Below, one piece after another: positions 2,678 through 26,300 of a DNA stretch of 64,000 nt. Origin of the DNA: Daphnia carinata (taxonomy: Eukaryota). Below the pieces are notes generated by a model, which had not been told where the DNA came from, did not search any database, and saw only the letters and a program-made list of their open reading frames with translations. Both the position numbers and the translations under genes were made by a program. The stretch spans positions 1,736,001-1,800,000 of the forward strand of contig NC_081332.1 in assembly GCF_022539665.2 (NCBI RefSeq), given 5' to 3'. Numbering within the stretch: the first letter of the stretch is position 1; each line of letters opens with the position of its first letter.

Positions 2678-3388
2678 TTTTCGGGTAATTGAATTGCCGC
2701 TGTTCACATCAGATGAACGTCACTAGTAAAAAAACAATCGAGTTAATGATTCCAATTCTTATTAAACAAATCAGCGTCAGTCATTCTGAGTACAAGACGA
2801 GAGGGACGTGTTCGCGGAAAGCTTTGAATTGTGCTCAAGGTTATCAGCTGTAATTTCAATTGCTTTTGTGAAAAACTGGTTTTGAGAACAGAAAACCCTT
2901 TTTTGAAATCGGTCAACAGTATAAGAACAGTTTGAAAAACATAAAAAGAACTGTGTGACCTTGTTTCTGTCATCGTTGTACTCCCTTTTTTTTCAAAACG
3001 GTTTCACTTTCTATTACGTGTCCGCGTTTGTCTTTCACGTCCTTCTAATCGATCCCCTTTCTTTGATATAAGAACACTTTCCAAAATTATTCATCAAACA
3101 AATTGTGCAGTTTCATGGGGGAGAGTATTTCGGATGGAAAACACCCAACAGATTTCCAATCAACTCAAAATTAAGATGACCCAATTTCGATCAACCTGCT
3201 CCTCCCAACACGAAAGACGCTCGTCATCCAACGATGAATAAAGTTTAAATAGCTTCAAGTTTTTGTTCACGATACTTAAGATACAGTTAACCTGTTTGCT
3301 TGGTGACAGGTGCGAAACTCACGAACGACGGGAAAATCCATTAGAGCAACTTTCACGCTGAGCGATTCACGAACTGAGATTAGATTTG

Positions 3389-3512
3389 ACTTACCAATGA
3401 TTTTCACTGATTGTTAAGTGGCCAACTGCGTGTACAAATGCGCACAGAACATAACTAAAGGACTTTCGATTTTCAACTGAAAAAGACTGACACGTCTGGA
3501 CTTGTATTTATA
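3389..3512 (-). promoter_or_regulatory. Putative TATA-Inr core promoter and non-coding leader exon of the CD20-GTPase gene
   Basis: Minus strand TATAAATAC (3512-3504), TCAGTT Inr (3480-3475), donor G|GTAAGT at 3394; candidate acceptor TTTTTTACTAG at 2723 just upstream of ATG 2677. Confidence 0.55.
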
Positions 3513-5752
3513 GGGCGGGATTCAGGAAACGTTTTGGTATAATGGCACAACCTCCCCCTTCGTAGTGAAAGATCTAATGGACAAATGGGCACGTGAAAGG
3601 TAGACCCAACCTTGTTCAGCATCAATACGTATCTGAAAATAAAATAAAAAATGAAAAGAAACGTGTCAAAGTGAATGTGAATGCTGGTTACTTTTCTCTG
3701 GAAAAACAAAACGATAGAGAACCCAAAGTTTTCGCCTTGGACTGCACGAGTTGTGCAATAACCTAAAGTAAAGGTCCCTGGGTTCTCAATGTAAAGCATA
3801 TTTCACCTTAATTGACCATTTTTTAAAAATACATCATCATCCCAATTATTGGCACTACCATTTAAAGCAGCAAATCAGGGCCCTGCTTACGAAAGCCAGA
3901 ACATTTACGTACCGACAGGTGTGGCACTCAGGTGTCCCTTTGTTTTCCATCGTCGTGTATTGCTGCAATGTGCGCAAAAAAAATTGGGGTGTTAAGAAAA
4001 GAGACAAAAGAAACGTTTTTATTTGAACGTGAATATTGCGATGATAATCATCAAATACTGACTGCAGGCACGGAGCGCAGGTATGTCGACTTGATTGCTG
4101 TCATACTCGAATGCAAAAAAAAACAGTACGTAATGACATTGAATTTCAAGCAAATGAGGGGAATGAAATGGAACCTTGAATTGCAGGCTCTTACCTTAGG
4201 CAAGACAAGTTTTTTTCAGTGAACATTCGTTAGAACTTAAATGAGTAAAACCCAGGTGTATCGGAACGATGTGGACCCCAACTGTTGAACTGTTGGGATT
4301 TGGGCTACAGGCTTTTCGTGGAATGTTCTAATCTCAGAACGAATGTCTTAAAAAGGCAACGATCAGTTCATTACTTGTTCTAAGCTGAAACTGGATGAAA
4401 ACCAGGGACTTGTGTACAACTTAAATTTACGTAAGGTTGACTTCAAACAAATTGAAAATGGCTACAAGCGTGTAAACGTGATTTTAGAAAAGGACAGCCT
4501 AATAACGGTGTTCTACAAGGCTATTTGACATACACCTGTCACCTTTCGAACAATCTGTTTTGAATATTTTGCGATGTTTGGTCTCTTTTTATTGCTCCAG
4601 CAAAGTTGAATAGCTGTGATGGCCAGTACGACGCTATAACGGCATTAAATTTTCTTTATTAATGTTCTATAAAGAAAATTGTTTGTATATTCATTTTGGC
4701 CTGCATTTTGATGTCGTATGCGCGGTCTTGTTTTAGCTGTGATAAGAACACAATTATAATTCTGCTAAATTGCATGTAGACAACCTTGAGTCAAGACCTC
4801 CGTTTTGTTCGAGTCTTGTGCTACATTTGATAGTATTTGATGAATGACGAAGCATTCAATAAAATCGATTTTAGAAAAGAATGGTGTGTGACGCAAACAA
4901 AAAATATTTTGGAAAATCATGAAGAGAAATCCTCCACATAAATTTGCATTTTGATTAAACCGCTTAAGATACTTCCTTTTAATTCCTCTATGTAAAATGT
5001 CGCTTTAAGGATTCTTAGACCTATGGCGTTCCAGGCGCTAAAAAATAATTTAACAATCGATACTCCAAAAAAAATCAAATGCGTGATTCTTAGTTTCATA
5101 TGGAGTACATCAGAGCAATATATATATGTTGCACTGTATTCATATTTTTTTTTTTTTACTAATATTTGCTTTTGTTGTAACACGTGTGTCCTCGAATGTC
5201 ATTGGGTTAGGCGATATCGTGGATATCGTCAAGAGTTTCTGCAACAAAAATCAGGGAAATCGGCAAGGTCAATAAGGCCACGCCCTTATCTCTCCAGCGT
5301 TTGAGCTTTTGGTCATTGTGACACAAGAAATTCAAAAAAAAAAAAAAATGTCCGGGAATACCATTGGAACAGCTGAACGCAACTAGAATTGTTCTTTGCA
5401 CGGACATTATCTTTTGCGTAATAGAGCCTAGTGGGCAGGACATATGCAAAGCAGGAGGGTTTTTCCTTTTCAAGAGTGTTATCGAAATTGTTCTTTTTTT
5501 AGCTGAACAATTAATTGTGAGGCAAACAGCTTTGGTGAACCGAGTAATTAACCATCGAAACATGACGTATCGGAATTATTTTTTTCCAGACATGCTTGCA
5601 AACACAACACATAACAAAAACAAACAACACTAAAATAGATGCACTACAAAAAAAATCCATAATACATTTTGGAGAAAAAAAAATTCACGGAACACTTCTG
5701 AAATTGTCTGTTATGAAACAGGACGGATCTCGCGTAATATATTTTACTAAAG

Positions 5753-8700
5753 CTACATCCATTTGGGTTTGAATTTTGAAACAGCAGAAGTAAGGGGATC
5801 CCACATTGATTTCTTCTGGGTTATCTTATTTCCACCACGTTGTTCGCTTTCATCGCGTGACGAGTCGGTGTCTTTGTCATCTGCCAACTGATTGTGGGGC
5901 AAAATCACTTTTGTTTCATCGCTCTCATCAGTATTTTCTTGCACTAACGACGGCGGGCCTGCAGCCGAGTCACTTGATCCATCTGGATTGTGACAATATC
6001 CGTCTTTCGTGGAACTTGGCTTCTTGGACGTTTTCACTGAATTTTGGTAATAATCTTCAGGGCTGCCTGGCGGATGTTTCCGTGTGATATCGGTACCGTA
6101 AATGACGATGGCAGCAGTGTCTGTTTGGCTTGTTTCATAGCCTCTTCCGCGAGATGGACTATACGTTTGGGTGTTGGAGGATGCATTCGGCACAGTTCCA
6201 GGGTGATGGGTTCCACTCGTATACGACCGAGTGTGATAGCTGATCTCACGTCTTGAGTTAGTTGACGCAGTTACCTGTCCACCTGATTGCATGGTGTTAA
6301 AAGCTGGACTGGATCGTGAAGGCGTTTCATCCTGGCCATTTCTTCCAGGATGGATTGATTTGGATTTCAACGTGCCACCCATGTCAGTTGTCGACGTCAG
6401 ACTTTTTTGTAGGTCCGTTAATGTTTGTAATCGAATTTCGTAGCTGGGTGCTTGTTCTTCCAAGATGCGACTACTCATCAAACTGAGGTACTCGGCTGGA
6501 TTGAGGGATTTTGAACGAAGAGCTGTAGAATCCAATGAACTGGCATTGGCACCTAAGTGTTCCAATAAACTTAACACTTTGACTTTAGCCATTTCCAGAT
6601 CGTCCAAACAATTTGCCATCAAGTCTTCGGTCGCTGATTTTTGATTAGAGTTCAGTTCAAATTTAGTCTTCTTATCATTTCGAGTCGTTTTTACTTTTGC
6701 CGGACGCAAAATCCAAGAAAACGGCTGAAATTGGTGGTCTGATTCGAAACATCGGCAAGACACGTCCTTACAAGCTCTCTTATACAAATTCCTGCGAACG
6801 GCAGGCATTTCACAAGTTTTCTTGCAACTTATGCAATTATAAGCCATGAGTCCACGGTCACAGTCGACCTTCACGGCAAACATTTCTTCACTTTCCGTGA
6901 CAAAATTCTGGTTAGTCTCCATGTTGTGACCGTATGTCATCAATTGCTGGCGATGCATTTCTATTTCTTCAATTTTAACAAGAAAGCTTTCCAGCTCATG
7001 TTCAATGTCCTTAAGCGATTGGCCGAGTTGTTGACGACGCTGGATCACTTCTCGAGTGGACGTAAGGTTTTGGCCGCCCATTGCAGCCAGCATCGTGAAA
7101 AACTTGCCAAAATTTTCTTGACCCATATCCCAGAACAGTTCGTCAAAACTAAATTCATTTTCTTGTATTACATTGGAACAATAAAGAACGGCGCTGTTGA
7201 ATTTGCTGTAAGTGATTTCGTTCGATGCCAACGTCGATGGGAAATTAGCCAATTTACAGGCTTCTACGACGGGAGGATCAGCATTATCAGCAAATGTCAC
7301 CAACAAGCGAAGGTTCTCCTTCATGTCTTTGCCAAAGATGGACAGCACAGATTCGATGATGTAACGTTGAGTGTACGTCAGACGACTCTCGCCCGAAGGG
7401 GCCACGAAACAAGCAGCGTGAATTTCGTCTATTGGAATTTCTTGTTGAGTCAAGAAACGGTGGATTTTGGCCGTGATTTCCTTGTCCCTTTCGATTCCTC
7501 GAGTGTCTCCATAGCCAGGAGTGTCGATGATGGTGATGGAATAAGGAACGGCCATTCCTTCTTGGTGGTGGATGGTGTAGGCCGTCACAGAACTCGTCTG
7601 ACTGTGCGCTTGATTCCGGCCGTTCCCTTCGTTACGGACGCATTTGAAACGAAACGGATCATTCCATTCGACTCCCAAGATGTAGTTGATCATACCATTG
7701 ATCAGGGTACTCTTTCCGGATCCAGTGGCACCCATTAAAATGATGATTTTGTGATTCTTTGGATCGGGCGATTGCAAAGTGTGGCCAGGCCGGCCGATGT
7801 CGAACCATTTGATGTCGACGCTATCTGATTTTTCCGACGCATTCAGCATGTAAACATCTGGCGATCCTTTTCTTATTAGTTCGCTGTACTGAGCGTTTTG
7901 ATCTACAAACATGTCAGCAATCCTTCGACCTTCACTAATGTCCGTCGTTTCATGTACTGGCCGTTTGCTATTTTGATCACCGTTAGACTCTTGTATTTCA
8001 TCGTCACGTTTATCGTTTGTGTTGTGTATGACGGCATCGTTTTCGTGATCGTGTTGACTCGACGTCTTCTTCTTATCAAGTAACGCTGCTGCGACAAGAT
8101 TGGCATCATCCTTTGATTCTCCGGAAGTGGAACTGCGTTCTAGATTTGTGCTGTTGCTCCCGTTCTTGGCCAGTTTGTCGGCCACTGTCGGCTTCGCGAA
8201 GGATTTCTTATCGTTTAAGGACAATTCTTCGAATTTAATAGCAAGTGAATTTTCCGGACTGGTCGCTGTTGGATCTATGGTATCGATGTTTGTTGTGGTT
8301 GTAAGCATCTGTCCTTGTGATGGTTTTGTTCGCGCTTTCTTGGGGAACTGCGTCTCGCTTTCGTCTTCTGCGGTACCTGAATCAGATGAGGACTCAGATG
8401 GCGTGACATAATCATCATCCTGTGATGATTCATGTTGTTTGACACTTTCGGGAGGGGACCCTTCGTTTTCCACATGGTCTTGTTGATTTGGATTGGATTC
8501 GATTGTTATTTTACAAGTAGGTATTCTAGAAGGTACATTATCAAATATGTGTATAGTGCCGTCGTCTATTTCCGAAGGAACAAGTAGTAGTAGTATGTAG
8601 TAGCTCGTGTCTCCGTGTAAATTGCTTGAATGAACCTCTTTTTCGAATGGCCCAAATTTGCTTCTAACCGACTGGGATCCTTTTTGAAATGAGAAAATTG

Positions 8701-10097
8701 GCACGACGGGAAGCTCAGCAGGCCAGGTATGATCTCCGATTTCTTGCCGCATGTAATTCATTACAGGGTCTTCTTTGTATTCGACGTTCAGGACGAATAC
8801 TTTGAAAAATTTTGTGTCTTTTTTCTTCATTTGATTTTTTATCCCATGCAAAGTTATTGTAGCCAATTCAGTGCCGCTTGTCAGCCGTGAAAACTCTTCT
8901 ATTTCATGTCGCCGATTAGCCAACCATTCCATGACATCATTCAGAAACTTTGAGATGGATCTCATTTGTTTTAAAGCGCCTTCCGTATGACGTTTCCCGT
9001 ACTCTTCTTTCTCGATTTTCTTGTCGATTTTCTCACGAAAATCTGCTTGGACTTGCTGGAAATCAGACATCACTGTTCCAAGTAAAGGAAAACGATTGAT
9101 ACACGGATGTTTGGATATGCTTAGACTTTTTTCTTCGATAGAGGCCCATGTTGATTTATGCTTCGCCATCTCGGATTCAAAATCTTTCTTCCGATCCAAC
9201 TCAATTCGAGTTTCAAATTGTTCGGGAATACGAAAGAGAAACAAATGAATAGGTTTCCAGTTTTTCGGATGATCGCCCCCAACAGAACTGCGAATCTCTT
9301 GCAGATATTGATTGAATTCTTCGAAAGGCATTTTAACAGGTTTACCGGCATCTAAGCTGCTGAATATCGTACAAGAAACGTTACTTAATTCGACAGGTAT
9401 ACCCTCACTAGTAGATTGATTAATTATTTGATCAAAATAGTTTTTGGCCGACAAATAGAGATTTCGTTGGACGCGCTCTTTTGTTTCTCCCTCTAAGGAT
9501 CTGTGAAAAGAACAGATCACTTCAGCTCCATAGACAACTCCTCCAACCAAATGTGTCGCTAGACCGCCACTCTTCAGTTTACAGTCATGCATTTGGGACT
9601 CCATGGCGTCACATTTCAGAGTTTCGGTTCGTCGTTCCACACGAAAAAATGCGGTGACTTGTGCCTCGTCATTGTTGCCATCCTCCGGGCTGATATTGAG
9701 GTAATGGACGAACCACGGTTCGCTGGAACCCTCACGTCTTTTCTCATCGATATATCTCTGGTCATGCGAGTTGATACCCAGTATTTGATTTTTTAATTCA
9801 AAAGGCTGCTGACAGAAGAAAGAGGACGTCGTTTGCTTTTCGTATGAAATTTCAATGCGTTGCTCTGGTATTGCTATCTTACCTTGCGTACAAAAAAAAA
9901 TGATTAAATGATTCGATAAGAATGGTCGTGAAGCAGAAATATGATTTAGTTAAGCACATAGCAGTAAATACAAAATATGTTTCACTTTATGAAAATGAAG
10001 AATTACTTGAAAAAATAGCGCCCGTGTAGTAGTTGTAGAAATCCCCAACCCAAACATTGCGACCCAGAGGCGACAGTTGGAGACAGCGTTCAGCCAT
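5753..10097 (-). CDS. Type A1: stonustoxin/verrucotoxin-like N-terminus, disordered linker, septin/AIG1-like GTPase, Cys-rich segment, coiled coil (~1406 aa)
   Basis: Exon 1 10097-10007 (MAERCLQLSPLGRNVWVGDFYNYYTG), phase-1 intron, exon 2 9882-5753 in frame with the 1295-aa ORF. SNTX-like motifs 'ATHLVGGVVYGAEVICSF' and 'WKPIHLFL'; GATGSGKS, SQT, DTPG, TFAD; 'NCISCKKTC...C...CRC...H'. Confidence 0.85.
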
Positions 10098-10741
10098 TGT
10101 AAAATTATCGACTGCCTTAAACAGCTGGTTGCCCGCTTGAAAATAAAACGCCAACTGGACAAAAAAAAAGTCACGTAAACGAAGCGAACGTTATTGCCAT
10201 CAGTAAGTGCCCTACCCTCTCATGAAGACGCAAACATAATTCTAATCAAAAGCAAACAAAGGAAAGTAGAACTGCGTCAAAAGCTCCTTTATCGGGAATA
10301 CGTTTACCTGCACTGGCCGTTGTTTACATGAACTGCCCTTCTGTGATGTCGCAATTATCCACTGCAGGTTGAGCTCACGCTATTCTCACGAAATTCAACA
10401 GAAAAAAATGCTTTGATAATCCACAGCTGACACCGAACGAACTGAACGCAGGGAAACAAATAAGTCCGTAGTTTAAGAGCACGATAAGTTCGCTTATCAA
10501 GCTATTCAAATAAAATTCTAAAAGGACTTGGTGATATCATCGCAACGTGTATCTTTGCCGTCACAACCTTTAGCCGACATAGTCAAACCATTTGCCACGA
10601 TCAGTTCCGAGAAAACGTTTGACTAAATTAGGTCTTTCTTCACCTTAAAAACAAAGTGTACGCGTTTTAGTTCTTGCCTGTTGGACGTGGAGGGACGTGA
10701 ACGTGCAACTAAACCGATAAAACGAAGCAACGGTATTTAAC

Positions 10742-13700
10742 ATGTCCCAAGATTTAGATGTTATCAAAATATTCGCATTAGGCCGTCCTTTTGCCGTAGG
10801 AACGCTTTACAATTACATTGAAGATACAATCATACCAAGTAAGAAAATACATTTGTATTCAATAATACGCACTAACATGTTCGGTCCATTCAGATCTTCG
10901 AATATGGGATCCAAACATCGTGTCCCGTTCAGAAGTTGTCGATGGAACTATGAAATCGACTGCCAAAGTTAACTTAAAAGTACCCGAGCAAACAGACAAT
11001 GAAGATGGCAATGTTGATGAAGAAGGACAGACGACGTTGCTCACCGAGTTGGGTATGGACGATCACACGGCCATGAGTGTGACAGCCGGACTGTTGCGTC
11101 CATCTCTCAAAGGAGCTTGGCAATATGCGGCCGACTGGATCGAACAAACAGAAGAATTATTAAATCACGAAGTTCAAGTGGCAGTTCATTGCCGTTCTAC
11201 CATCAAGAAAGCCTCTGTCACTCCGAATTTGGAAATCATTTGTTTTCCTCGGAAATTAATCGACAGTCAGGCAACTCATGTCGTTATAGCCATCACGTAC
11301 GGCCGAGAAGCGTTTTGCATATTTCCACAGGAACAAGCCGAAAGTCAGAGAAACAAGCAAAATGGCTACGAAACGATCATGGAAACGACGAGGAATTACG
11401 CTCATTTCTTTCAAAACCGGCTAATGAACGATTACGAATCATTAGAGCCGGCTGGCGATGAAGAAGGTGACACAGAAGACGGACGTAGCCGGCCTATTCC
11501 AAAGGATTACCAATGCCTTGTTTACAGCGATGTCATGGCAGTCAGAGGTGGCAAAAGCTGGACATTGAAGCCTGTCGCAGAGCAATACGAAGCCTGCAGA
11601 AAGATATTGAAAACGGCCATCGTGAAAGACGCCGGACGAAAATCTGAATCCTCTGAAAAAGCCATTCCGCTGAAAGTGTGGCTGTATCCTTTGCATAAAT
11701 TGATGTCTGATGATTTGGGAAAGATACCGACACGTTTTCTAGATGTCCCACGGAGTTTGATGTCTCGTTGCCATCTGGCGTTAGGCCGTTTCCGTCGAAT
11801 TCAATCGAAAGTAAAGATGTTAATTCAACAGCTGGACAGATTGGCTGATCTCCGATGCATCCCGTTGGGCACAAGCAATAGAATTCATGAATTTAAAGAG
11901 TTGACCATCACGTTTGTCTCCGTTTTTATCGAGGTGTTGGGAGTTTGGACGCGCAGCTTCCGCCGTGGAACAGCTCAAGAAGAACAATTGGCTGAGGTGC
12001 TAGATGCATTACAAACTCAATCGCCATTCGATACTAAGAAGCTGAATCATTGGCTCAATCATCAAGACAAAGAAATCACAACTTTAGAACGGCTGGCTCG
12101 CTTGCCCAGCGTACTGTTTACCCCCGATGTGGAACGCGTGAAAGAAGAGCTCACAACTGGGGATGACGGGTCGTTCGCTGTTGTTCTTCATTTGCCCAAT
12201 CTGATAGAACGTTTGAACGGTTTGATTGATGAGATGCGTCGTCTTATTGACGTTTTCAAGGAAACATCATTGTTTAGCTCGATGAGTTGGCCAAACGGTA
12301 GCCAAACAACGCAATTGGCTTCATTAACTCATCGTGAAATGTTTGCTGCTGGCCAAGAGTTTTCCGACTGGGTGAGGGACAACAACCGCGATACCGTTGA
12401 TGTCCGCTACATCATCTTTTACGATGAACACCTCGATGAAGGCGGTGGGCAAGCCTTGCCCTTAACGCTATTGTACCAGTGCGGCAAGGCTCCCACTCTG
12501 TTAACGAACTTCACCATCCCAAAGGCTCCTGAAGAAGTGACTGTCGTAAAGAATCGTCGTGGCGTCATTGTGTTGCGTTGGCCGGCAGGGGACCCGATTG
12601 AAGTACGCCACTATCTAGTCCAGTATCGTAAAATGGATAGCCAGAAAGATCACTGGGAGACTGTTCAGATTAATTCAAACGAAATCGAATTTCGTTACCT
12701 TCAATCAAGTGAGACTTACCTGTTCAGAGTGGCGGTACATATGCGCGGAGGGAGGAGCCAATTTAGCCCTGGCAGCTGCGAAGTGACAATAGATCCAGTT
12801 CGTCCACCTCCAACTGGATTACAAACTCACGAAGTGACCGATACGAGCATATCTTTATCATGGTATCATCAATCTTATATGGATAACGAAGATACCGATG
12901 ATCGTGGAAATAAAGACTTCAATATTAGCTCTTTCTCTGTTGAATGTTGGAAGGACGATAGTCGTCACGAAGCGACGTTAATCCAACGATCTACGACGCA
13001 AATGAGCATCGTATTGGAGCCGCTAGATCCAGACACGGATTATCACGTTCAAGTTAGGGTTGAATGCAAAGACGCCAGTGGCTCCACACTCTACAGTCCG
13101 GCATCAGAGACGTTGAAAACTAAGACACTGCGAGAAGCAGAGCGGGCAGCGCACATCGTTCGCCGTACCAGCAAAAAATCTTCTGTTCCGCATGAAATTG
13201 ACATTTACGAGTTGCCATTGGATGAAAGTAGCAACGCACAAATTCAGGGAGTCGGCCATTACGTTTTTGGTAAGCCGAGTTATCTGGCATTGGCAAGTGA
13301 ACATCGTCAGAGAACTATCTTGTTATTGGGCGCCACCGGTTCCGGCAAGACGACGCTAATCAACGCCATGGTCAATTACATTCTGGGCGTCCAATGGGAA
13401 GACGATTTCCGTTTCAAATTGATCGACGAACCAACCAACAAATCGCAGGCGCACAGTCAGACGGACTCGGTGACCACCTATGATTTTTACGAGATGAAAG
13501 GCTCTCGTTTGGGTTACTCGCTGACGGTCGTCGATACGCCGGGATTTGGCGACACCAAAGGCCTGGAGAGGGACAAGAAAATTATGCAACAAATTCAAGA
13601 GTATTTCAAATGTCAGCACGGGATTCAGCAGTTAGAGGCCGTTTGTTTCGTCGTCCAGTCTTCACTCGCCAGACTGACGCCTACCCAGCAATATATCTTT

Positions 13701-14774
13701 GACCAGATTTTATCCATCTTCGGTGAAAACATTAAAAATAACATCCGGCTGATGGTGACATTTGCTGACAATGATTTGCCGCCCGTCCTCGACGCTGTCA
13801 AGCAGGCCCGTATTCCCTTACCCAAAGATCCAACCACCGGGCAGATCCTCCATAACAAATTTAACAGCTCCATTTTTTTCGCCTCTAATCAGAACGAAAT
13901 TCAGGCAAACGAATTCAACCGGAATTACTTCGAGATGGCTGTCCAAGGTTTCGACAAATTCTTTGACGATTTAAGTCGCATAGAGGCCAAGTCACTGACA
14001 CTAACTCGCGAAGTACTTGATGAACGAAAGCGCTTAGAAGCTTTCGTCAACGGCCTTCAACTCCGCACCGAAATCAAATTGGCACGAATCGACGAGTTTG
14101 AGAAAATGAAGAAAATGCTGGCAGAGAATCAACAACAAATGGATGAAAACAAGAATTTTGATTTCGAAGTAGAATTTCTCGTTCCAAAGTCGACTGACAT
14201 CAGCGGGACGGGCCGGTTTACCACCAACTGCCAAAAATGTACCACAACGTGCCATTTTCCTTGCTCGAAAGCCAGCGACAGCGATAAACATCGTTGCTCC
14301 GTCATGGACTCAAATGGAATCTGCAAAATTTGTAAATGCCCGTGGAATGTCCATTTTAATCAAAAGTACAGGTACGAAATGGTGATGGAGAAAGTGAAGC
14401 GGTCATCGGACGCCATCCGGAAGCAATATCAAGGGGCCCAGGCCGAAGCACTGACTAATAAACAACTCTTAGCCAAAGTTCAGGCAGAGATTGATCAATA
14501 TGAAAAGCAGCTGTTGGAATTGGTACAGGTTACTTCTCCTTGTATACAGAGATTGAACGAGATCGCTCTGAAGCCTCACACGTTCTCCACACCAGCTTAT
14601 ATTGATCTGATGATTGAAACCGAGAAACAAGGAAATCGCCCTGGATACCAACAGAGGATCACAACGCTGCAAAAACTTCGTCAAGTAGCCGAGATGACGA
14701 CACAGCTCGTGAACGACCATCAGAGTCCGAAAACTCTGCCTTCGGGCCTCAGCGTTGTTCGTCAAAAGTTTTAG
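10742..14774 (+). CDS. Type B1: stonustoxin/verrucotoxin-like N-terminus, 2x FN3, septin/AIG1-like GTPase, Cys-rich segment, coiled coil (~1325 aa)
   Basis: Exon 1 10742-10838 ('ALGRPFAVGTLYNYIEDTIIP', like the stonustoxin start ALGRPFxLGMLYD...LIP), intron, exon 2 10894-14774. Motifs 'ATHVVIAITYGREAFCIF' and 'AIPLKVWLYPL'; two FN3 repeats; GATGSGKT, DTPG, TFAD; NCQKCTTTCH...CKICKCPWNVH. Confidence 0.9.
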
Positions 14775-15029
14775 GCGTTAATAATATGACTAAAAGTTAC
14801 GAACAACCAGTGCGATGCTACAGGATTTTGGTACTGTTTGATTCAACGCTTGTTTAAGTTCAACACTAAGAAAATGATTTTTCATTCCCCAAATACATAA
14901 CCTTGTACGTTTCACTTCCCTCTTCAAATATACATATGATATCGAGCTCTCGTTATCGTATTGTTTATTCAAATTTATGCCAGGTTTGGTTATCAACGAC
15001 GTTCGGAATCCTTTCATTGCCCCTTATTT

Positions 15030-16716
15030 TTACATGTCGTTTGACCACGAAGCTCGCCATTCGCCAGTGGCTAGAAGCGAACGGTTGAGAATCCATCCTG
15101 CTCCAATAAAGAATGTCATACAAAAATCTATGCATATTTTCACACGCACACATCAGAGAAAAATGTCTATGAATAATTAGATTCCCTTACCCTGATTCAC
15201 AAGCCCATCTCGTAGTTCTCCCCAGCAGTTCTCTTTCACCATCTTAAGAAGCGCACTGGAGATGTCACCTTCGACTACCGGCTTCATACCGCTAACCTAT
15301 AACGAAAGAAAAACCATAATCTAAACTTATGTTCAAGGTTTCCTTCACAACTGATTTGACTGACCGCGTATCCGGATGCAAGCATGGCAGCCAGAACGGC
15401 GTGTGAATAAGATTCCAACATCTCTTCTGATGTACAGTCTTGTCGATAAATTATGTAGATAGTTTTACTAACAGAATCAGGAATCAAGGCAAAGTTTCGG
15501 TCAGAATAAACAGCTAACTGATTTTCCAAGTCCTTCTTGGAGGCAATGGCTTTGATTGAACATCCAAGTTCTATCCGGTAGCCGCAGACGTCTTTCTCTG
15601 GGTGAAAGAACAGGAGGAATCATAACAGCTGGTTGATATTGAATTACGCCATTAAGTTTACCAGTTGGAATGAGACCCATGACGACGGATTCAAGTCGGT
15701 TGATGACTTTCACTGAAGGCACGTCTTTAGACGAAGCGAATTGCTTCAAAATGAGCATGTATCTAGTTCTGTTAAGCGTTTCCATGCTGACGGCTTTCAC
15801 CGCTTTCAGGTTGGCGAAGACGTGCAGCAACGTAAACAAAAAAAAAGAAAACCACGTCATCCTATACAGACAGAGAAATAAAAAGGCATACAAGTTGAAT
15901 AAGAAAAAACACAGGCGAGCAATAGATATAGACGAACTTTGTAGACCCGTCCAAGAAAGGTAAGAGCCAGAGGCTGGTGATTAGGGCAGCGAGGTTGACC
16001 AAGGTTTCCTGACTTCCATCTTTGGCTGATACGTCGGCCAGATTCCCTTGTCTAGCCTATGTAATAAAGAGGAAACAGATCCCCTCATTTCCTTACAATT
16101 ATTCGATGAAGTGTACTATTCAATACCTGATGTTGGGTTAATGCTGCTCGAGTTGCTCCGCCTGCTACTCCGACGATTGATTTAGCCACACCAGAAACGC
16201 AAAGGATACCAGTCATAGCCCCATTAGATCCGCCTACTGCTGCTACAGCGTAGGGGGCACATAATTCAAGGCTTAGAACCCAGTCATTGAGAAGGTCAGC
16301 AAAAAATCTCCATTTTTTGCTGTCAGCATCTAGATTTGTACTAAAAACCATTTTATGAAGATGCATTGCATTATCGAAAACTGTTGTGAGCACTAACCCA
16401 TTGCACCAGGCAAATAATATTCTGCCAACCATTCCAGTACCATCTTTTATCAACCACATTAGGGTAGCAGCCAGAGGAGTGGATGTGCTACTGCCCACTC
16501 CCACTCCCTCTACTATAGCTCTCGTAGACAAAGATCCTGACAAACTACTTGCGAATGCCTAAGTGTAATCTTTAATTGTAATACACAGTAGTCAGACAAA
16601 AATGTATCACATAAATTCACAAGGCATCTCAAATTTCCAATAATCACAAGACATTCCACATGTACCTGAACTGTGTCCCAGATTTGGTATTCCAGATAAT
16701 CATCACTGACTGAAGA
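15030..16716 (-). pseudogene. 5'-truncated duplicate of RUS1/RUSF1 (DUF647)
   Basis: Near-identical to 27624-29313, but homology stops inside exon 2 at 16716; exon 1 and the start codon are absent. Confidence 0.8.
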
Positions 16717-16790
16717 ATATTAATGTGACGGGAAAATCCATTAGAGCAACTTTCACGAGCTGAGCGATTCACGAACTGAGATTAGATTTG

Positions 16791-16914
16791 ACTTACCAAT
16801 GATTTTCACGGATTGTTAAGTGGCCAACTGCGTATACAAATGCGCACAGAACATAACTAAAGGACTTTCGATTTTCAACTGAAAAAGACTGACATGTCTG
16901 GACTTGTATTTATA
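16791..16914 (-). promoter_or_regulatory. Duplicated TATA-Inr promoter and leader exon, now upstream of truncated RUS1
   Basis: Copy of 3389-3512 retaining TATAAATAC (16914-16906), the Inr and donor GTAAGT (16796). Confidence 0.5.
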
Positions 16915-18476
16915 GGGCGGGATTCAGGAAACGTTCCGGATAGTGGCACAACCCTCGCAGTAAGATCAAATGAGCACGTGAAAGGGAGACCCAACCTTGT
17001 CCAGCATCAATACGTATCCGAAAATAAAATAAAAAATGAAAAGAAACGTGTCAAAGTGAATGTGAATGCTGGTTACTTTTCTCTGGAAAACAAAACGATA
17101 GAGAACCTCAAGTTTTTCGCCTTGGACTGCACAAGTTGTGCAATAACCTACAGGCAAAGGTCCCTGGGTTCTCAATGTACAGCATATTCACCTTAAATTG
17201 ACCATTTTTTTTTAAAAACATCATCATCTCAATTATTGGCACTACCATTTAAAGCAGCAAATCCGGGCCCTGCTTAAGAAATCCAGAACATTTGCGTACC
17301 GACAGGTGTGGCAAACTCAGGTGTCCCTATGTTTTCCATCGTCGTGTATTGCTGCAATGTGCGCAAAAAACAATTGGGGTGTTAAGAAAAGAGACAAAAG
17401 AAACGTTTTTATTTGAACGTGAATATTGCGATGATAATCATCAAATGCTGACTGCAGGCACACTGCAAAAGTTGGTTTTCATTTCCATCTGAAATAGATT
17501 TCTTGCCCAATCTTAATAAAACAACCAAATTTATTTTCTCGGCCATTGCCAATCAGGAAATGAACTTGTGCTGTCAGCTTATCAATTAATCGAAATAGAT
17601 TTGGCCACAGTCTGTCGTCATTAAATGCAAGCCTAACACGCCTATTTGTATTTCCGATGACGTAACTATTTTCGTTGTAATAACAATGAAAATATATATC
17701 GAAAGCCAATTTGCATTAGAGAAGGTTGGGATGACAAAAATCAAGAAACAAAAAGCTTCTTTCTTTTTCGAGCTATACAGAGGAAGGGGAAGAAAATTAT
17801 TTTCATCGATTCTATGCAGAAAAAGAAAAACCGCCTTTTTGTTCAGTTCTTTTTTTCCGTGCCCTTCCCCTACATTCCTGAGTGTGTGGACCAAATTATG
17901 CAAAGTCACAAGAAAACGGCAGTAAGGGATGGGCGATCATTTTTTTTAAGGATAGGGGGAAAGGTACAGTGAAAAAGAAAAGGGTACCTTTCTTCATTGC
18001 AATATGCTAATCAGCACCCGAGGCAAACTTAAGACGAATGATATCAAATGTTCAAAGATAAGCATTTCGCATGTATTACCATGTTGATTTTTCGATTTCT
18101 GTCTACAGCGTATTGAAGGTACGATACTAGTAAACAGGGTAATGTAATTAAAAATTAGAACGTTACCTTTTGACACTTGGCAAAGTTGGCATGAAATTTA
18201 AAATTATAAGTCATTTCTTTTAAAACTCAAAGAGTTCCCAGAAATTAATCGCAGCAAGTCGGTTTAATCGATTTTTGTTTACTGATTTAAAATGAAGAAT
18301 TCCTTTGACAAAGCGCACCCCACCAATGTCTTGATTTTTTGTTTGTCTTCGGAAAAATGTCTTTTGTTGGGATAAAGAAATGGTTAGAACTGTAACTTAA
18401 ATTTGATATACACGCAAAACATAAGCTTAAACCTTCCACGATTCGCTTTTTTTCTCTCTGTTGTGCTAATCAGTTG

Positions 18477-21400
18477 TCACTTTCCGCTGTTTTTCGAACT
18501 CCAACGAAACCAATGTCTACCCTTCGGTTTACTCTCTTCGTGATCACCGGAGATTGGCTCGTATTGCGTAGGTTGCGGTTTATTGTATTCTTGACCATAA
18601 TTTGACGCGGCAGCCGGATTTGTTGATTGGTATGTTTGCTGTCGATTGTCCCTTGTACCTGCGCTATGTACCGGTTGCGACGTACCATTGGCCAACATCT
18701 GCTGTATGTCATCTAATGTCTCTAGACGTGTCATGTAGCCAGGGGCCTGTTCCTCCATGACACGACTCCTCATCAAACTCAGGTAATCGGATGGACTGAG
18801 TACGTTCGAACGTAAAGCTGTGGATTCAAGTAACTTGACGTTCTTAGCCACTTGTTCGAGCAGAGTCAAGACTTTGACTCTAGCCACTTCTAAATCGTAC
18901 GAGCACTCGTCCAGCATTTTTTCAGCGTCCATCTTGCCTTCGTAATTCAATTCGTACTGGGCTTTCATGTCCAAAAAAGTCAATGTTACCTTGTCTGGAA
19001 CCAAACGCCATTCCATTTCTTCCATCTTATGGTCAGATGGCGGACAGTGGCAGGCATTATTTCCACAATGCCCTGTTTTTTTAGGGAGTGACTTTTGTTT
19101 TTTGATTTGCCTTTCGCAGGTTTTATTGCACCTGCCGCAGTTATAGGCAAAGTATCCCTTTTCACATTGCAACTTCTCAGTCTGCTCAAACGTGAAATTC
19201 TTGGTAGCTTCCATATTATGGCCATATGTTTTCAATTTCCTCTGAAAAATTTCTATGCTTTCGATGTTGATTAGACACACTTCCATTTCTTCTTCGATGT
19301 CTTTCAGCGATTGTTCCAGTTGGCGTCTACTGTGAATGACTTCCCGTGTGGACTTGAGATCCCTACCCTTCATTCTCTCCAACATATCAAAAAATTTCTT
19401 AAAATTTTCGTGACCCATGTCCCAGAACAATTGGTCGAAACTGAATTCGTCATCTCCCTGTTTCACGTTGGAACAATAGAGAACGGAGCTATTGAATTTG
19501 CTGTAGGCGATGCCATCCGATGTCGCGGGGAAATTAGCAGAAAGACAAGCACCGACGACGGGAGGATCAGCATTATCAGCAAATGTCACCAACAAGCGAA
19601 GGTTCGCCTTCATGTCTTTTCCAAAGATAGAAAGAACCGAGTCGATGATGTAGCGCTGCGTTACCGTCAATCGACTGTCACCCGAAGCGGCGACAAAACA
19701 GGCGGCGTGAATTTCATTTATTGGAATTTCTTGTTGAGTCAGAAAGCTGTGGATGGCGGCCGTGATTTCCTTGTCTCTTTTAACTCCTCTTGTATCGCCG
19801 TAGCCAGGGGTATCGATGATGGTTATCGAATGCGGAATGGCCATTCCTTTTTTATGGTGGAGTGTATAGGCCGTCACAGAACTCGTTTGACTGTGCGCTT
19901 GGTTCCTGGCCGCGTCCTCGTCTTCGCGGACGCATTTGAAACGGAACGGATCCTTCCACTGGACGCCGAAGATGTAGTTGACCATGCCGTTGATCAAAGT
20001 GCTCTTTCCGCATCCAGTGGCGCCCATCAAAATGATGATTTTATGATTCTTCGGATTAGGCAACCGAATAGAGTCGCCGAGCCGGCAGATTTCGAACCAA
20101 TTGATTTTGGCGCTGTTTGTTTTTTTCGTCGCGTTTAGCAAGTATACGTTTGGCGATCCCTTTTTGTTTAATCTGCTGTACGATCTGCTCTCGTCAGCAT
20201 AAATTTCAGCAATTCTTCGATTGTCATGGAGCTCCGTGTTTTCGCAGGCCACCCATCTATCATTTTGTTCATCATAAGGATCTACTCCCCCAGCTTCGAC
20301 TTTGTCATTAACTCTGCCATGTACGCGTTCTTGTTTCTTGCTGCTATCGTCGTTCAGTTTCATCCGAGGTTGAACGACGGCGGATGTTGATTGCCCTCTT
20401 GCTTTTGCGTCACTCAAATTGAGTTTTCCAATTGGTAAATTTTGTATTTCTGCCTCGCATTCTATTCCGCTCTGGCCTTTCTGGTTAACGGTGTTTGCAG
20501 TTGACTGCGCCTGCTCCATCGGCGATGCTGTTGGCGGTGACCCTTTCATATGCTGATTGCAACCTGCATCATTCATTTCTTCAGAGGAGGAGTCCATTTC
20601 AATGTCCATCTCGGTTTCTTCGTTTTCCTTCAATTGAGCTGTGGGATTTTCAGCAAAATTGGGGTTGATACGCCCAGAATCCTTGTCCGTCCTCAACTGT
20701 TGATTTTCATTTGAAACAATGGTTGGAACCAAAGGAGCAGGCAAACAAGCGAGATTAGAAGAACTGCTAGGAAAACATTTTTGCTTTTCTTTCTTTTCCA
20801 AGTCTTGAATGGGATTATACCCCGGCATCATGTCTGACGATTTTTCGGAATAGTCTACGGTTATTGTAGTTCCTTCTTTCAACTTCGAATAATCAAGTAC
20901 TATGTGGTAGTTCATGGTGTTCACGTTCCGTTCTGCCTCGCTTGCGAATTTCCTTAACGCAGTATAAACAGATTGGAGTAGCCCTTTCTCATGGGAGAAA
21001 ATCGGTAAAACGGGTCGTACAGCATTCGAGATTTGTTGACCAACTGATTCCTCTAATTTACGTATAAGAACGTCCTGTATGTATTCGACTTTCAAGACGA
21101 ACTGTTTGGCTATTTTGCAATCTTTGGAAGCCATTTGAGCTTCGATTTCCGCCGAATTCAGTAGTTTAAAACTTGTGCCACTCAAAAGCCAACCAATTTC
21201 TTCAAGTTCCACCCGCCGATAGGCAAACAAGTCGATTATTGTATTCAGCAAATTTGAAATAGAACGCATTTGTTCTAAAGCTTTTTCGGGCGAAGATGTC
21301 TCATGGATCTTGTATTCTTCTTCCACTTTCTTCCAAAACTTAGCCATCAAACTTTGGAAATTATAAAAAAGTGTTGCGAGATGAGGAAAATGTTTAAGAG

Positions 21401-22413
21401 AAGGATCGCTGGAAATGTCACGGATCTCTTCCGTCATCCATTTACTGGTCACTCGATGCCGCTCTTTTTCCAGATAGATATCGCCCTTCCTATCTGACCA
21501 CATCCGTGCTTCGATCCTGGCAGCTGGTATGTCTCGTAGGAGAAATTCAATGGGTTTCCATTTCTTCTGAATGTTGCCCGTATCAGAACTTGACAGATCT
21601 TGCAAGTAGTGGATGAATGCCTCGAAAGACATTTCTCTCTTATAACCATTTTCGATACTACTCAAAACCGTACACGAGACTTGATGCAATTCGAATGGCA
21701 ATTTCGCACTAGTCGATTTCATGTTTGTTTCATCAAAATATTTCTTAGCTGCCAAGTAAATTTTGAATTCAGCGCTTGGCTTTGTTTCTGGGGATAAATT
21801 CAAGGTTTTTCGCATTGAACATATCACCTCCACGCCGTAGACGACCTCGTCAATCATATGCGTTGGTGTCGTCCATTTCAGTCGATCGTCATCAATTTTC
21901 GATCGTAGAAAATCGGAATCCAGGGTTTCCTTTCGTCGCGCTACTCGGAAAAATAGAGTGACTTGAGCATGCTTTTCATCGCCATCCATCGAGTTTGTAT
22001 ACAGGTAATCGGCGAACCAACATTGGCGACCGGGCACAGACCCTTGGTTGATACTCTGAAGTAGATGGGAGTTGATACCCAAAATGGAATGTTTGAATTT
22101 TTCGGGTTGCTGATAGAAAAAGGAAGGCGTCCATTTCCCAGCGGTTTCCGATATCGTTTTGCGGTCGTTCGGCACTTCGATTCCATCTGGGACGCATACA
22201 TAACACCAGTTATAAGAAAGCTAAAATTTTTGATGAGGCAGTCTAACGAGTCAACTTATAGTAGAATTTTAAAATGTAACAGAAGCTATATTTGATACTG
22301 TATATGTTGAACATGTTTTATTTACATGTGGAAATGACGTCGGTGAAGTAGTTGTAGAGACCTCCAACCTGCGCGTCCCTACCTAGAGCTGATATTCGAA
22401 TGGGCTCAGCCAT
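18477..22413 (-). CDS. Type A2: stonustoxin-like N-terminus, disordered linker, septin/AIG1-like GTPase, Cys-rich segment, coiled coil (~1265 aa)
   Basis: Exon 1 22413-22326 (MAEPIRISALGRDAQVGGLYNYFTD), phase-1 intron, exon 2 22186-18477. 'THMIDEVVYGVEVICSM', GATGCGKS, DTPG, TFAD; colinear with A1. Confidence 0.85.
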
Positions 22414-23387
22414 TTGTGAAAACAAACTGAGACGTGGCAATAGTTAAGGAGGGATCGTAATAAATGTTCTATTAACTGCTTACCTGTTAGTTTTCCGTCA
22501 GATTTTGAATTTCTCGCACGGGCAAAGAAAACCCTTCCAACAGGTGAATTTCCTTAATATGCAAAGCAGCACGGAATCTATGTAGAACGCAACTGAGTCA
22601 ACGGTGAAATGGTTTGCAAAGAATTGAGACACCCACTATCAACGAAGCATCCTTCCTTTCGAAATATTCCTACAGGTTTTACACACGTTATCGTCAGCGG
22701 TCAATCAAAAGTCATGCCCACGATTAGCTGGCGCTTGTTCAACCTTGCTATCAGCCCTAAATTGTGAGCTCAAACATGATAAGAACGTTACCTGCCCACA
22801 CGTTATTTGCTTCGGAAAGTCCTGCTATAGTGTCGCAATTGTGGTAGAATGAAAAACAAGCTGAGCTCCGTTATCAGTTCCAGTGAAGTCAACGTGCGTT
22901 ATTCATACACAATCCAAATAAAAAGCGCATTTGGACAATAGCAAAGTTCAAAAAGAATATGCCAGAGTTCTATAGTTTTATAATTCACCTGCTCGTGTCA
23001 GGAGATAACAATGGTCAAACATTAGGTGGTGCAATTGCAAGGTGTATCTAGCCTGGAAAAAGAACAAACAAACTTGATGGATGTTTCAAAAGAAAGATAA
23101 CTGTCGTTATTATCGCGAACGAATCGCATAGCCAACCTAAGCACATAGAACTTTAAACATCAACGATGAGCTCATTGCGGCGTAGTTTTTCCCCCTGTTA
23201 CTCCCAGCTGACGCTATCAGTTTAAGTGTTTTATTAAATTCGTTTCCAAAGAAATAGCTGGTGCCACTGGACTGTATCAATTTCGTTTCCTCGCCTAGTA
23301 ACAGCCTGTTCGATCTTGTTTTAGTTTGTCGCACCAGCTGTGAACGAACGCAAGTGCATCAATAAACTTTAAACAAATCGTTTAAAA

Positions 23388-26300
23388 ATGCCTACGCATC
23401 TGGACGGGATCGAAATACTGGCACTAGGCCGCCAGTTTAACATTGGAACACTTTATAATTATGTCGATGATAGCATCATACCAAGTAAGAATGCAATTCA
23501 TAACACAAATGTTAATGTTCGTATAATTATAGTATGTTGGGTGTGTCCAGGTATTCGATTATGGGACCCATATGATGTGTCCAATTCAGCCGTTGTCGAA
23601 CCAAACGAAAATGCTGAAGTCTTTCTAAAGACGATCGCGCAAACCAACGAGGAAGGCGAGAATCCTGATGAAGGAGAAGATCAAACACCGTTCCTGTCCA
23701 ATTTAGGAATGGACGATCACACGGCCATGAGTTTGATGGCCGGACTGTTGCGTCCATCTCTAAAAGGAGCTTGGCAATATGCGGCTGATTGGGTCGAATC
23801 GAAGAACGATTTACTTAGCCAGGGAGCTCATGTGGCAGTCCATTGCTGCCGTTCCGAAAAAAACATCTCTGTCGATCCTGAGAGTCAATTGGACATTGTC
23901 TGCCGGCCAGAAAGGCTAATGAAAATTCAGGCAACTCATGTCGTCATTGGAATCACGTACGGCCTAGAGGCCTTTTGCATCTTCTCTCAGGACAATCAAG
24001 CCAACACTTACGCACGTGTCTTTAAAGACCGGCTGGTGAACGAAGACGAAAATTTGGAACAAGATCAGGACGAAGAAGGTGACGAAGAGGATGGTGGACA
24101 ATGCTCTTTCCCAAAAGACTTGCAATGCATTCTCTACAGCGATCTCGGGGATTTTAAAGGTAGTAAAAGTTGGACACTGAAGCCTGTCGCAGAGCAGTAC
24201 GAAACCTGCAGGAAGATACTGGAACATGGAACTGTAAAGTCCATCCCAATGAGGGTATGGTTGTATCCACTCAACAAGCTGATGGCTGTCAATGAAAGAG
24301 TTGCTAAAATGCCTCCAAATATTAAAGATGTCTCGCGAGAACTGCTATTTCGTTGTCAAGCCATATTGAGCCATTTGCATGGACTCTGTTTGGAGGCTGA
24401 ACTGTTGGCTAAAGAACTGGATGGGCTAGAAAGTCAGCTTCCAGCGTCCATTCCGTCGACAGCCAATGAAAGAATCAAGCACTTTAAAGATTTGGTCATG
24501 CAATTTTTGCCAACTTTTATCAAACCACTGTCAGTGTGGACTACTAAAATTCGTGATGGAACGGTTCGAGAAGAGAAAATAGCCAAAATCATCGATGCGG
24601 TAGAGACCCAGTCGCCATTCGTTGTTAATAAGTTGAAACTCTGGCTGAATCTACAGAGACAGGAATTGAAAACTCTAAAGAGTCTGGATAAATTGCCTGG
24701 TGTGCACTTAGTATCGAGCATGGAACGCCTGCAAAACGAAATAAAAAATGGGGGCAATACGTCGCATGCCATCGTTCTTCATCTGCCCAGTCCCAGAAAA
24801 GAACAAGACTCATTAGTTAATGAGATGCGTCGTTATATCGACGACTTCAACGAAGCTGCATCATCTGGCTGGATGAACTTGCCAACGAAAAATAGCGATG
24901 AAACAGCAAAGTCAACGTCCTCCGTATACCGCCAAATTTTAACGTCTGGCCAAGAGTTTTCCGATTGGATTACGAATCACAATGCGGATACCAAGAACGT
25001 CCGCTACATCATCTTTTACGACGAATGCACAGAAGAAACCTTGCCCTTCACAAGATTATATCAGTGGGGCAAGGAAGAGGCTCCTTATACAATCCCAAAG
25101 GCTCCTGGGCAAGTGACGGTCACAAAGAATCATCGTGGTGTGATTGGATTGAGTTGGACGACTAATGATACGACCGGACTGCGCCATTTTCTGGTTCAAT
25201 ATCGGACAGTGGATGGGCAAGAAGATCATTGGCATTCCGTCCTTAAGCCTTCAAACACAATCGAAATCGATTACCTTCAATCAGGTGAGACTTACCTGTT
25301 CAGAGTGGCAGCGGAGACACTTGGAGGGCGGAGCCCGTTCAGCTCTGTCAGCTGCGAAGTAACAATAGACCCAGTTTGTCCGCCGCCAAGTCAATTGCAA
25401 GTTCACGAAGTGACCGATACGAGTATATCTATTTCGTGGAGCCATCAACCTCACTTGAAAACCGGAGCTGAAGAGGAACTGAGCATTACCTCGTTCACTA
25501 TTGAATGCCGGATGGGTGAAAGCCGTGACGAATCGACCTTCATCCAACGATCTACGATGAAGAAGAGCATCGTACTAGAACCGCTTGATCCAGGTGTGAC
25601 TTACCACATCCAAGTCAGGGTTGAGTGCAAAAACGCTAGTGGCTCTACTTTCTATAGCCCGGCATCAGAGGTTTTGCAAGCTTGCACACTGCAAGAGGCA
25701 GAGCGAACTGCGATCATCGTCCGCCGTACGAGCAAAAAAAGTTCCACTGGGCCTGGAATTGACATTTACGAATTGCCGTTGAAAAAACGTCACAATGCCA
25801 AAGTTCAGGGAGTCGGTCATTACGTGTTTGGTGAGCCGAGCTATCTGGCAGTAATAGGGAAACGTCGACAAAGAACCATCTTGGTACTGGGAGCCACCGG
25901 ATCCGGCAAGAGCACTCTCATCAACGCTCTGGTCAACTACGTGCTGGGCGTCGAGTGGGAAGACGATTTCCGGTTCAAGTTGATCGACGAACCAACCGAC
26001 AAGTCGCAGGCGCACAGTCAGACGGACCTGGTGACAACTTACGACCTCTACGAGATGAAAGGTTCCCGGCTGGGCTATTCGCTGACGGTCGTCGATACTC
26101 CGGGATTCGGTGACACCAGCGGAATCGAAAGAGACAAGAAAATTATGCAGCAAATCAAAGATTATTTCCAGTCTCCTCACGGCATTCAACAATTAGAGGC
26201 CGTTTGTTTCGTTATCCAGTCTTCACTCGCCAGATTGACGCCTACCCAGCAATATATCTTTGACCAAATTCTATCCATCTTCGGTGAAAACATTAAAAAT

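Follow-up and report, generated by a model that had tools for sequence, protein, structure and literature searches.

What do two pairs of genes that diverge from short spacers in the genome of the water flea Daphnia carinata encode, and does each pair act as one unit? The genes lie in a window of 64,000 nucleotides (NCBI RefSeq assembly GCF_022539665.2, contig NC_081332.1, positions 1,736,001 to 1,800,000 of the forward strand; all positions below are counted from its first letter), and each of them joins a stonustoxin-like MACPF region to a GTPase. The answer that we favour, at a rough probability of 0.45, is a head-to-head pairing of two classes of stonustoxin-fold GTPases, named A and B, that diverged long ago; the two genes of a pair likely share a promoter, and their products likely act jointly in the cytosol as a defence complex that is switched by GTP and, by prediction, does not form a stonustoxin-type pore. 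The pairs themselves are real and partly conserved; their parts are individually known, and it is the combination that differs. The genes and spacers are as follows.

5753..10097, minus strand: gene A1, class A, 1406 amino acids; exons 10097-10007 and 9882-5753, intron 10006-9883
10098..10741: spacer 1 (A1/B1), 644 bp between start codons, with 6 HGATAR sites; likely shared promoter
10742..14774, plus strand: gene B1, class B, 1325 amino acids; exons 10742-10838 and 10894-14774, intron 10839-10893
18477..22413, minus strand: gene A2, class A, 1265 amino acids; coding intron 22325-22187 and an extra intron, 22427-22483, in the 5' untranslated region (UTR)
22414..23387: spacer 2 (A2/B2), 974 bp between start codons, with 9 HGATAR sites; it contains the A2 5' UTR exon
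23388..27296, plus strand: gene B2, class B, 1280 amino acids; intron 23485-23550

In gene models built from the window DNA all four genes are intact, and A1/B1 and A2/B2 are each arranged head-to-head. A1 has its start codon at 10097 and a stop codon ending at 5753, and B1 starts at 10742 and has a stop codon ending at 14774; the two divergent pairs and both spacer lengths of the original prediction were reproduced to the exact coordinate. The common intron described there was also recovered: each gene has one coding intron, of phase 1 with GT-AG ends, after codon 30 in A1 (124 nt), 32 in B1 (55 nt), 29 in A2 (139 nt) and 32 in B2 (66 nt). A1 and A2 are 44% identical and B1 and B2 62%; identity between A and B is about 34% and confined to the GTPase half, their N-termini showing no clear BLAST similarity. 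A1 is database protein P0061 (D. carinata LOC130685823), with an exon 2 match of 100%, and exon 2 of B1 matches P0001 (D. carinata LOC132087730), also at 100%. The counterpart of A2 is P0069, and B2 shares its N-terminus and G1 region with P0016. By a hydrophobicity scan, the only basis used, the A and B proteins appear to lack a signal peptide.

A1 runs from an SNTX-like MACPF-FAT-THX region through a linker rich in serine, threonine, aspartate and glutamate (13%, 10%, 10% and 9%) to the GTPase, a Cys cluster and a tail. In B1 the same N-terminal region is followed by two FN3 domains, the GTPase and a Cys/His cluster. The proposed contrast between an acidic, Ser-rich linker in A and two FN3 domains in B is borne out by the A1 composition and by the Pfam fn3 matches of class B (3.6e-17 and 3e-19, the latter in B2). 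For the N-termini, Pfam detects Stonustoxin_helical in B1 (5.7e-9) and B2 (1.4e-8), and B1 matches the stonustoxin structure 4WVM by sequence at 2.4e-8. A1 has no Pfam stonustoxin match, and its fold is visible by structure prediction only. The AlphaFold models of the N-termini (pLDDT 87 for A1 and 80 for B1) both have 4WVM as their top Foldseek match, with E 7.5e-14 for A1 and E 4e-13 at TM 0.5 for B1, followed in each case by CDCs and MACPFs; in the Atlas, A1 goes with MACPF_SNTX clusters at 0.94. These predicted models point to the MACPF/CDC stonustoxin fold in both classes, as had been proposed. The claim that all four genes carry stonustoxin-like motifs needs correction: ALGRPF and AIPLKVWLYPL occur verbatim in B1 only, and class A is far more diverged. 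No C-terminal PRY-SPRY/B30.2 domain was found among the Pfam matches listed for the window proteins.

The GTPase is of an intact septin/AIG1 type, in agreement with the original prediction. G1-, G2-, G3- and G4-like motifs (GATGxGKS/T, SQT, DTPG and TFAD) are present in A1, B1, A2 and B2, and the Pfam matches that exceed the cut-off are AIG1, Septin and MMR_HSR1 for A1, B1 and B2 and, for A2, AIG1. These profiles are common to GIMAP/AIG1, septin and Toc34 GTPases, but the similarity to these families is weak (septins, Toc34 and GIMAP7 in the PDB at E about 1e-3 to 1e-2), and the A/B domain has its own signature, NY(I/V)LGVxWxDxFRFK, a Cys-rich insert and the fusion to MACPF. Between the window paralogues the ratio of nonsynonymous to synonymous divergence (dN/dS) of the G domain is 0.12 and 0.17, which means purifying selection. 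No positive selection was shown: the paralogue dN/dS values range from 0.12 to 0.62, with dS near saturation. Identity to most orthologues is 65-78% in the MACPF region vs. 77-85% in the G domain. The arginine of an RLT motif is invariant in 54 aligned proteins and absent from five Daphnia proteins of another set, described below; it may be the equivalent of the GIMAP arginine after the beta4 strand that acts across the G-domain dimer.

The two classes belong to a larger family. A FastTree analysis of 180 N-terminal regions separated a long-branch class A, a class B, a class C that is sister to B, and a canonical, vertebrate-type group; FN3 domains are found in B and C and not in A. Later class counts omit the long-branch rows P0155, P0157, P0158, P0068, P0093 and P0099 as well as P0171. 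A profile search listed 150 representatives, 132 of them new, which by best class score comprised 55 A, 58 C, 6 B and 13 canonical proteins; none of the 132 was an A-B fusion. All named A, B and C proteins are from Daphnia, and the sequences of these classes without a species name are presumably cladoceran. The SNTX-FN3-GTPase order also occurs in fish, shark, salamander, turtle, lizard and snake proteins, and in a GIMAP-like version in marsupials. Hence the single-gene architecture is already known to databases, as had been anticipated. Such vertebrate proteins (e.g., P0163, P0168 and P0173, from a group spanning fish, sharks, amphibians and reptiles) and the SNTX-FN3-AIG1 proteins of marsupials have the class B domain order, and G domains of the vertebrate type are about 35-38% identical to that of A2.

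Some proteins depart from these layouts. P0104, P0114, P0119, P0123 and P0128, a Daphnia subclade of C, combine a B/C-type N-terminus with a G domain nested in class A, have degenerate G motifs and are the five that lack the RLT arginine; by sequence they are likely chimeric and possibly form a catalytically weak third component. P0238 is a partial chimera, and P0231 (a D. carinata model), P0257, P0282, P0293 and P0319 contain two to five tandem SNTX-like domains, mostly with a GTPase at the end; in P0231, P0257 and P0293 the repeated domains belong to a single class.

Does the fold imply a pore? The original prediction was that A and B form a GTP-gated heterodimer acting on membranes; as a pore-former, it would kill the cell or a parasite vacuole by means of a divergent membrane-insertion sequence. 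The predicted models agree with this in so far as neither N-terminus has lost any part of the MACPF-FAT-THX fold and the two helical bundles of each are of normal length. Stonustoxin itself is an alpha/beta heterodimer (PMC10566576), and it resembles A/B in the MACPF/CDC, FAT, THX order and in having two paralogous classes. However, SNTX subunits are about 50% identical (PMC10566576), whereas the A and B N-termini are hardly comparable by BLAST; stonustoxin ends in PRY-SPRY/B30.2, in place of which A and B have a linker or FN3 domains plus the GTPase; and A/B do not belong to a venom context.

The residues reported to matter for the pore differ as well. According to a review, no pre-pore forms without G208/G209 of SNTX, which all fish cytolysins share, and the barrel requires both hairpins of each subunit (PMC8704401). 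When this position was mapped onto the family alignment, glycine turned out to be present in 48/48 canonical sequences and in 0/54 A, 0/42 B and 0/20 C; A1, B1, A2 and B2 all have serine. Among the new representatives glycine was found in 11 of 13 canonical proteins, 2 of 50 A, 0 of 5 B and 0 of 58 C, six gapped rows being set aside; the rows counted are kin and not independent events. By contrast, 114 of the 116 A/B/C sequences retain the beta3 glycine, a point in favour of a pore. Alternation in the hairpin TMH1 exceeded that of shuffled sequences in 36/46 canonical proteins, 5/40 A, 3/36 B and 6/13 C. Class A is at chance level, and some of the pattern survives in B (median z 1.05) and C (1.92), which also counts for the pore model. 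For TMH2 the figures are 14/46 canonical, 2/47 A, 0/39 B and 0/13 C, and class B has an acidic run there. None of the eight window hairpins exceeded shuffles (p 0.12-0.67) in this crude test, which is weak for TMH2. A histidine in TMH1 (GINSH, GMDDH, GIDEH) is conserved in classes A, B and C, with serine at the same place in canonical relatives.

Because both classes lack the pre-pore glycine and have largely lost hairpin alternation, their sequences do not suggest a pore or toxin of the stonustoxin type, and the emphasis that the original prediction placed on it is probably wrong. The named Daphnia matches in the A1, B1 and A2 searches include no canonical-clade member able to supply working hairpins. 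We therefore regard the heterodimeric pore-former as quite unlikely. Three points weigh against the favoured reading. Most substitutions of the lost glycine are to small residues (S, A, T), and the hairpin test detects just 14 of the 46 canonical TMH2 patterns. The analogous glycines of CDCs, in turn, let subunits pair through beta4 and beta1 (PMC6479001), so that without them a stonustoxin-style contact between A and B is less likely too, which tells against the joint complex itself.

There is precedent for a MACPF fold without a pore. Astrotactins and BRINPs have this fold with altered hairpins and are thought to act without forming one (PMC5483515). They have one shortened hairpin, developmental roles and no attached GTPase, whereas A/B keep hairpins of near-normal length with a changed residue pattern and are fused to a GTPase. 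The vertebrate-type relatives differ from A/B in the opposite direction: P0163, P0168, P0173 and the locus L020 keep the pre-pore glycine and a textbook TMH1, which makes GTP-controlled pore formation more plausible for them than for the Daphnia genes. No study of relatives of this type was found among the matches listed in our literature searches.

Do A and B stay together outside the window? Orientation in relatives was judged from metagenome contigs and from locus tags, which carry no strand. In D. sinensis the tags form three series: 004661 A, 004663 B, 004664 A, 004665 B, 004670 B, 004671 A, 004672 B; 013818 B, 013819 A, 013820 B, 013822 A; and 005403 B, 005404 A, 005412 B, 005413 A. The D. 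magna series reads 023130 A, 132 B, 140 A, 141 B, 145 A, 147 B, 149 A, 151 A, 154 A, 156 B, 159 B, 160 A, 161 B and 162 B, all under the prefix 023. Orthologues of A1 and B1 adjoin by tag in both species (013818/013819, 005412/005413 and 004664/004665 in D. sinensis; 023140/141 and 023145/147 in D. magna). RefSeq LOC numbers were dropped as evidence of gene order because they do not follow position in the window. In nine pairs, two from window DNA and seven by tag adjacency, the A and B distances are correlated with rho 0.92, a value reached in 1 of 288 within-species permutations; the set omits 140/141 (partial B), the other two D. sinensis cluster copies and unpaired genes.

In metagenomes a related-locus search confirmed none of 601 stretches, and a motif scan added 40 loci. 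Seven contigs are informative: each includes the beginning of an A, B or C gene and either extends at least about 1.5 kb further upstream or shows a partner. Two of the seven contain a head-to-head pair, in both cases of A with C, 634 bp apart in L038 and 579 bp apart in L039, so that class A pairs with both the B and C branches. In a further locus (L014) A and B are tail-to-tail, as between the pairs of the window.

The window's second pair adds less than it seems to. The arrangement is indeed repeated at 18477-27296, as first noticed, but the copy includes an unrelated gene:

11966..16716, copy at 24557-29313: duplicated block of 84% identity, spanning the 3' part of B and a RUS1-like gene

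The RUS1-like (UVB_sens_prot) copies, at 14800-16716 and 27400-29313 on the minus strand, are 95% identical over 1984 bp; X1, a transcript-like assembly described below, has contigs that combine features of both. The second pair is thus an old segmental duplicate and not a separate origin of the pairing. Along B1/B2, dS is 1.0-1.5 at the 5' end and declines to 0.31 towards the 3' end, a gradient suggestive of an old duplication whose 3' part was homogenised later.

This duplicate is one argument for another explanation, in which the layout is the relic of one old inverted duplication copied as a block, and the proteins, perhaps under shared regulation, act separately as homo-oligomeric GTPases. 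Compact genomes are rich in divergent gene pairs. The mirrored A and B distances indicate duplication as a unit and do not prove co-evolution of the proteins, as mirrored trees are expected from duplicating any linked segment. Unpaired genes exist, too. In D. magna, A 023149 and 023151 and B 023159 and 023162 lack a neighbouring tag in the set of proteins collected, and five of the seven informative contigs show no partner: upstream there is a C1q gene on the same strand (L023), a gag-like frame of a retroelement (L036), the tail of a same-strand paralogue (L037, itself broken) or nothing within 1.5-1.8 kb (L009 and L034). Five canonical loci likewise have no family gene upstream, over 8 kb in L006 and 1.5-3.2 kb in L008, L010, L020 and L025. 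All of this speaks against a pair that works as one unit. On the other hand, the start codons stay 0.58-0.97 kb apart in the four pairs seen in DNA despite widely diverged proteins, A is found with either B or C, and neither the window nor the 40 loci contain an A-A or B-B head-to-head pair. We consider separate action unlikely, though a serious contender. The A/B pairing is recurrent, not obligatory; the original prediction of a conserved pairing is largely right, being upheld by tag adjacency in two species and by L038 and L039 and not by the five unpaired contigs.

The favoured reading, a jointly acting pair, also needs both genes to be expressed together. Contigs of X1, a single sample whose depth cannot rank genes, cover all four genes and skip the coding introns of B1, A2 and B2 exactly, together with the A2 5' UTR intron and the RUS1-like introns; A1 is covered with no splice joint listed for its intron. 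X1 is recorded as 'DNA?', yet it skips introns and is for that reason read as RNA-like. Its contigs leave a stretch of spacer 1 uncovered, to which no weight is given, and a second run, X2, placed no contig on the window. The proposed co-transcription of A and B is supported to the extent that all four genes occur in one RNA-like assembly, and it is the spacers that hint at expression in the same cells.

The spacers are rich in GATA-type sites. HGATAR occurs 6 times in spacer 1 vs. 1.36 expected (p 0.002, 500 shuffles), 9 times in spacer 2 vs. 2.53 (p 0.004), 6 times in L038 vs. 2.33 (p 0.03, in a region that includes about 150 bp of the C gene start) and 5 times in L039 vs. 2.29 (p 0.06). No excess was found in four unpaired upstream regions. 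The pattern was picked by eye after the sequence had been seen and is one of seven tried, and the GATAA count of spacer 2 (6) is equalled or exceeded by 4 of 65 window tiles of 974 bp. The kB, DRE and TATA patterns are not enriched in the spacers, and a STAT-like N4 pattern is enriched in the window spacers only (p 0.022 and 0.004) and not in L038 or L039. The GATA excess is a lead for expression in the same tissue, not proof of it.

Taken together, a joint mechanism might run as follows. The GATA-rich spacer would drive A and B in the same cells, and GTP binding would join their G domains in the way that GIMAPs and septins dimerise. The MACPF-FAT-THX part may be an assembly or target-binding scaffold, specificity could come from the FN3 domains on B and from the variable N-termini, and GTP hydrolysis would reset the complex. 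For GIMAPs, homo- or heterodimerisation is regarded as the means by which activity is controlled (PMC8201404), and fish SNTX-like genes have been discussed as immune genes (PMC12107551). By analogy, kinship with immune GTPases and with these fish genes, together with tandem expansion and fast N-terminal divergence, suggests that the pair may act against intracellular parasites.

Joint action could also take an asymmetric form. Plant NLRs include head-to-head sensor/executor pairs, and in a similar manner one class might be a decoy or brake that acts on the other, held inactive until a pathogen factor disturbs the arrangement. The asymmetric architecture, with FN3 on B/C and a disordered linker and tail on A, fits such a scheme, as do the long A branch and the Daphnia C subclade that joins degenerate G motifs to an A-like G domain. 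Neither partner resembles a dedicated executor, however, because both keep conserved G domains in the window and are equally altered in the pore region. This sensor/inhibitor scheme appears very unlikely.

Other relatives and repeats are present in the window. A 750-bp repeat of non-coding appearance lies ahead of each A/B unit, at 3327-4071 and 16727-17461 (93% identity). At 812-1975 on the minus strand, directly behind an unrelated small multi-exon gene, there is a GTPase-only A-like open frame, 59% identical to A1/A2 and without the N-terminal domain or Cys cluster, a candidate relic or short isoform-like gene. A 497-codon frame at 53512-55002 (minus strand) is akin to the B-type GTPase half and retains the Cys cluster and stalk; with all G motifs degenerate (GENTSKQM, AMPS), its product is a candidate pseudo-GTPase.

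No description of the fusion, the pairing or these Daphnia genes was found among the literature matches listed, a search whose coverage mostly excludes subscription papers, the stonustoxin structure paper among them. In the accessible text of PMC10566576, which covers fish SNTX clusters, the words GTPase and head-to-head are absent.

A bolder version of the favoured reading, which we put forward as doubtful, is that cladocerans took an ancient animal pore-former of the MACPF-GTPase kind and made of it a GTP-driven polymer with two obligate subunits and no pore, encoded by a bidirectional cassette that was duplicated and diversified as a unit against parasites. If true, invertebrates would have an equivalent of paired immune receptors that is derived from a toxin fold, and the single-gene vertebrate relatives with pore hallmarks would be GTP-controlled intracellular pore-formers. 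Daphnia is a main model for host-parasite coevolution, and little is known of its cell-intrinsic effectors. A cassette of two classes that expands in tandem is a concrete, knock-out-ready candidate in this animal. Vertebrate copies with an intact pore region and water-flea copies with an altered one differ in a way that opens the function of a widespread family to testing.

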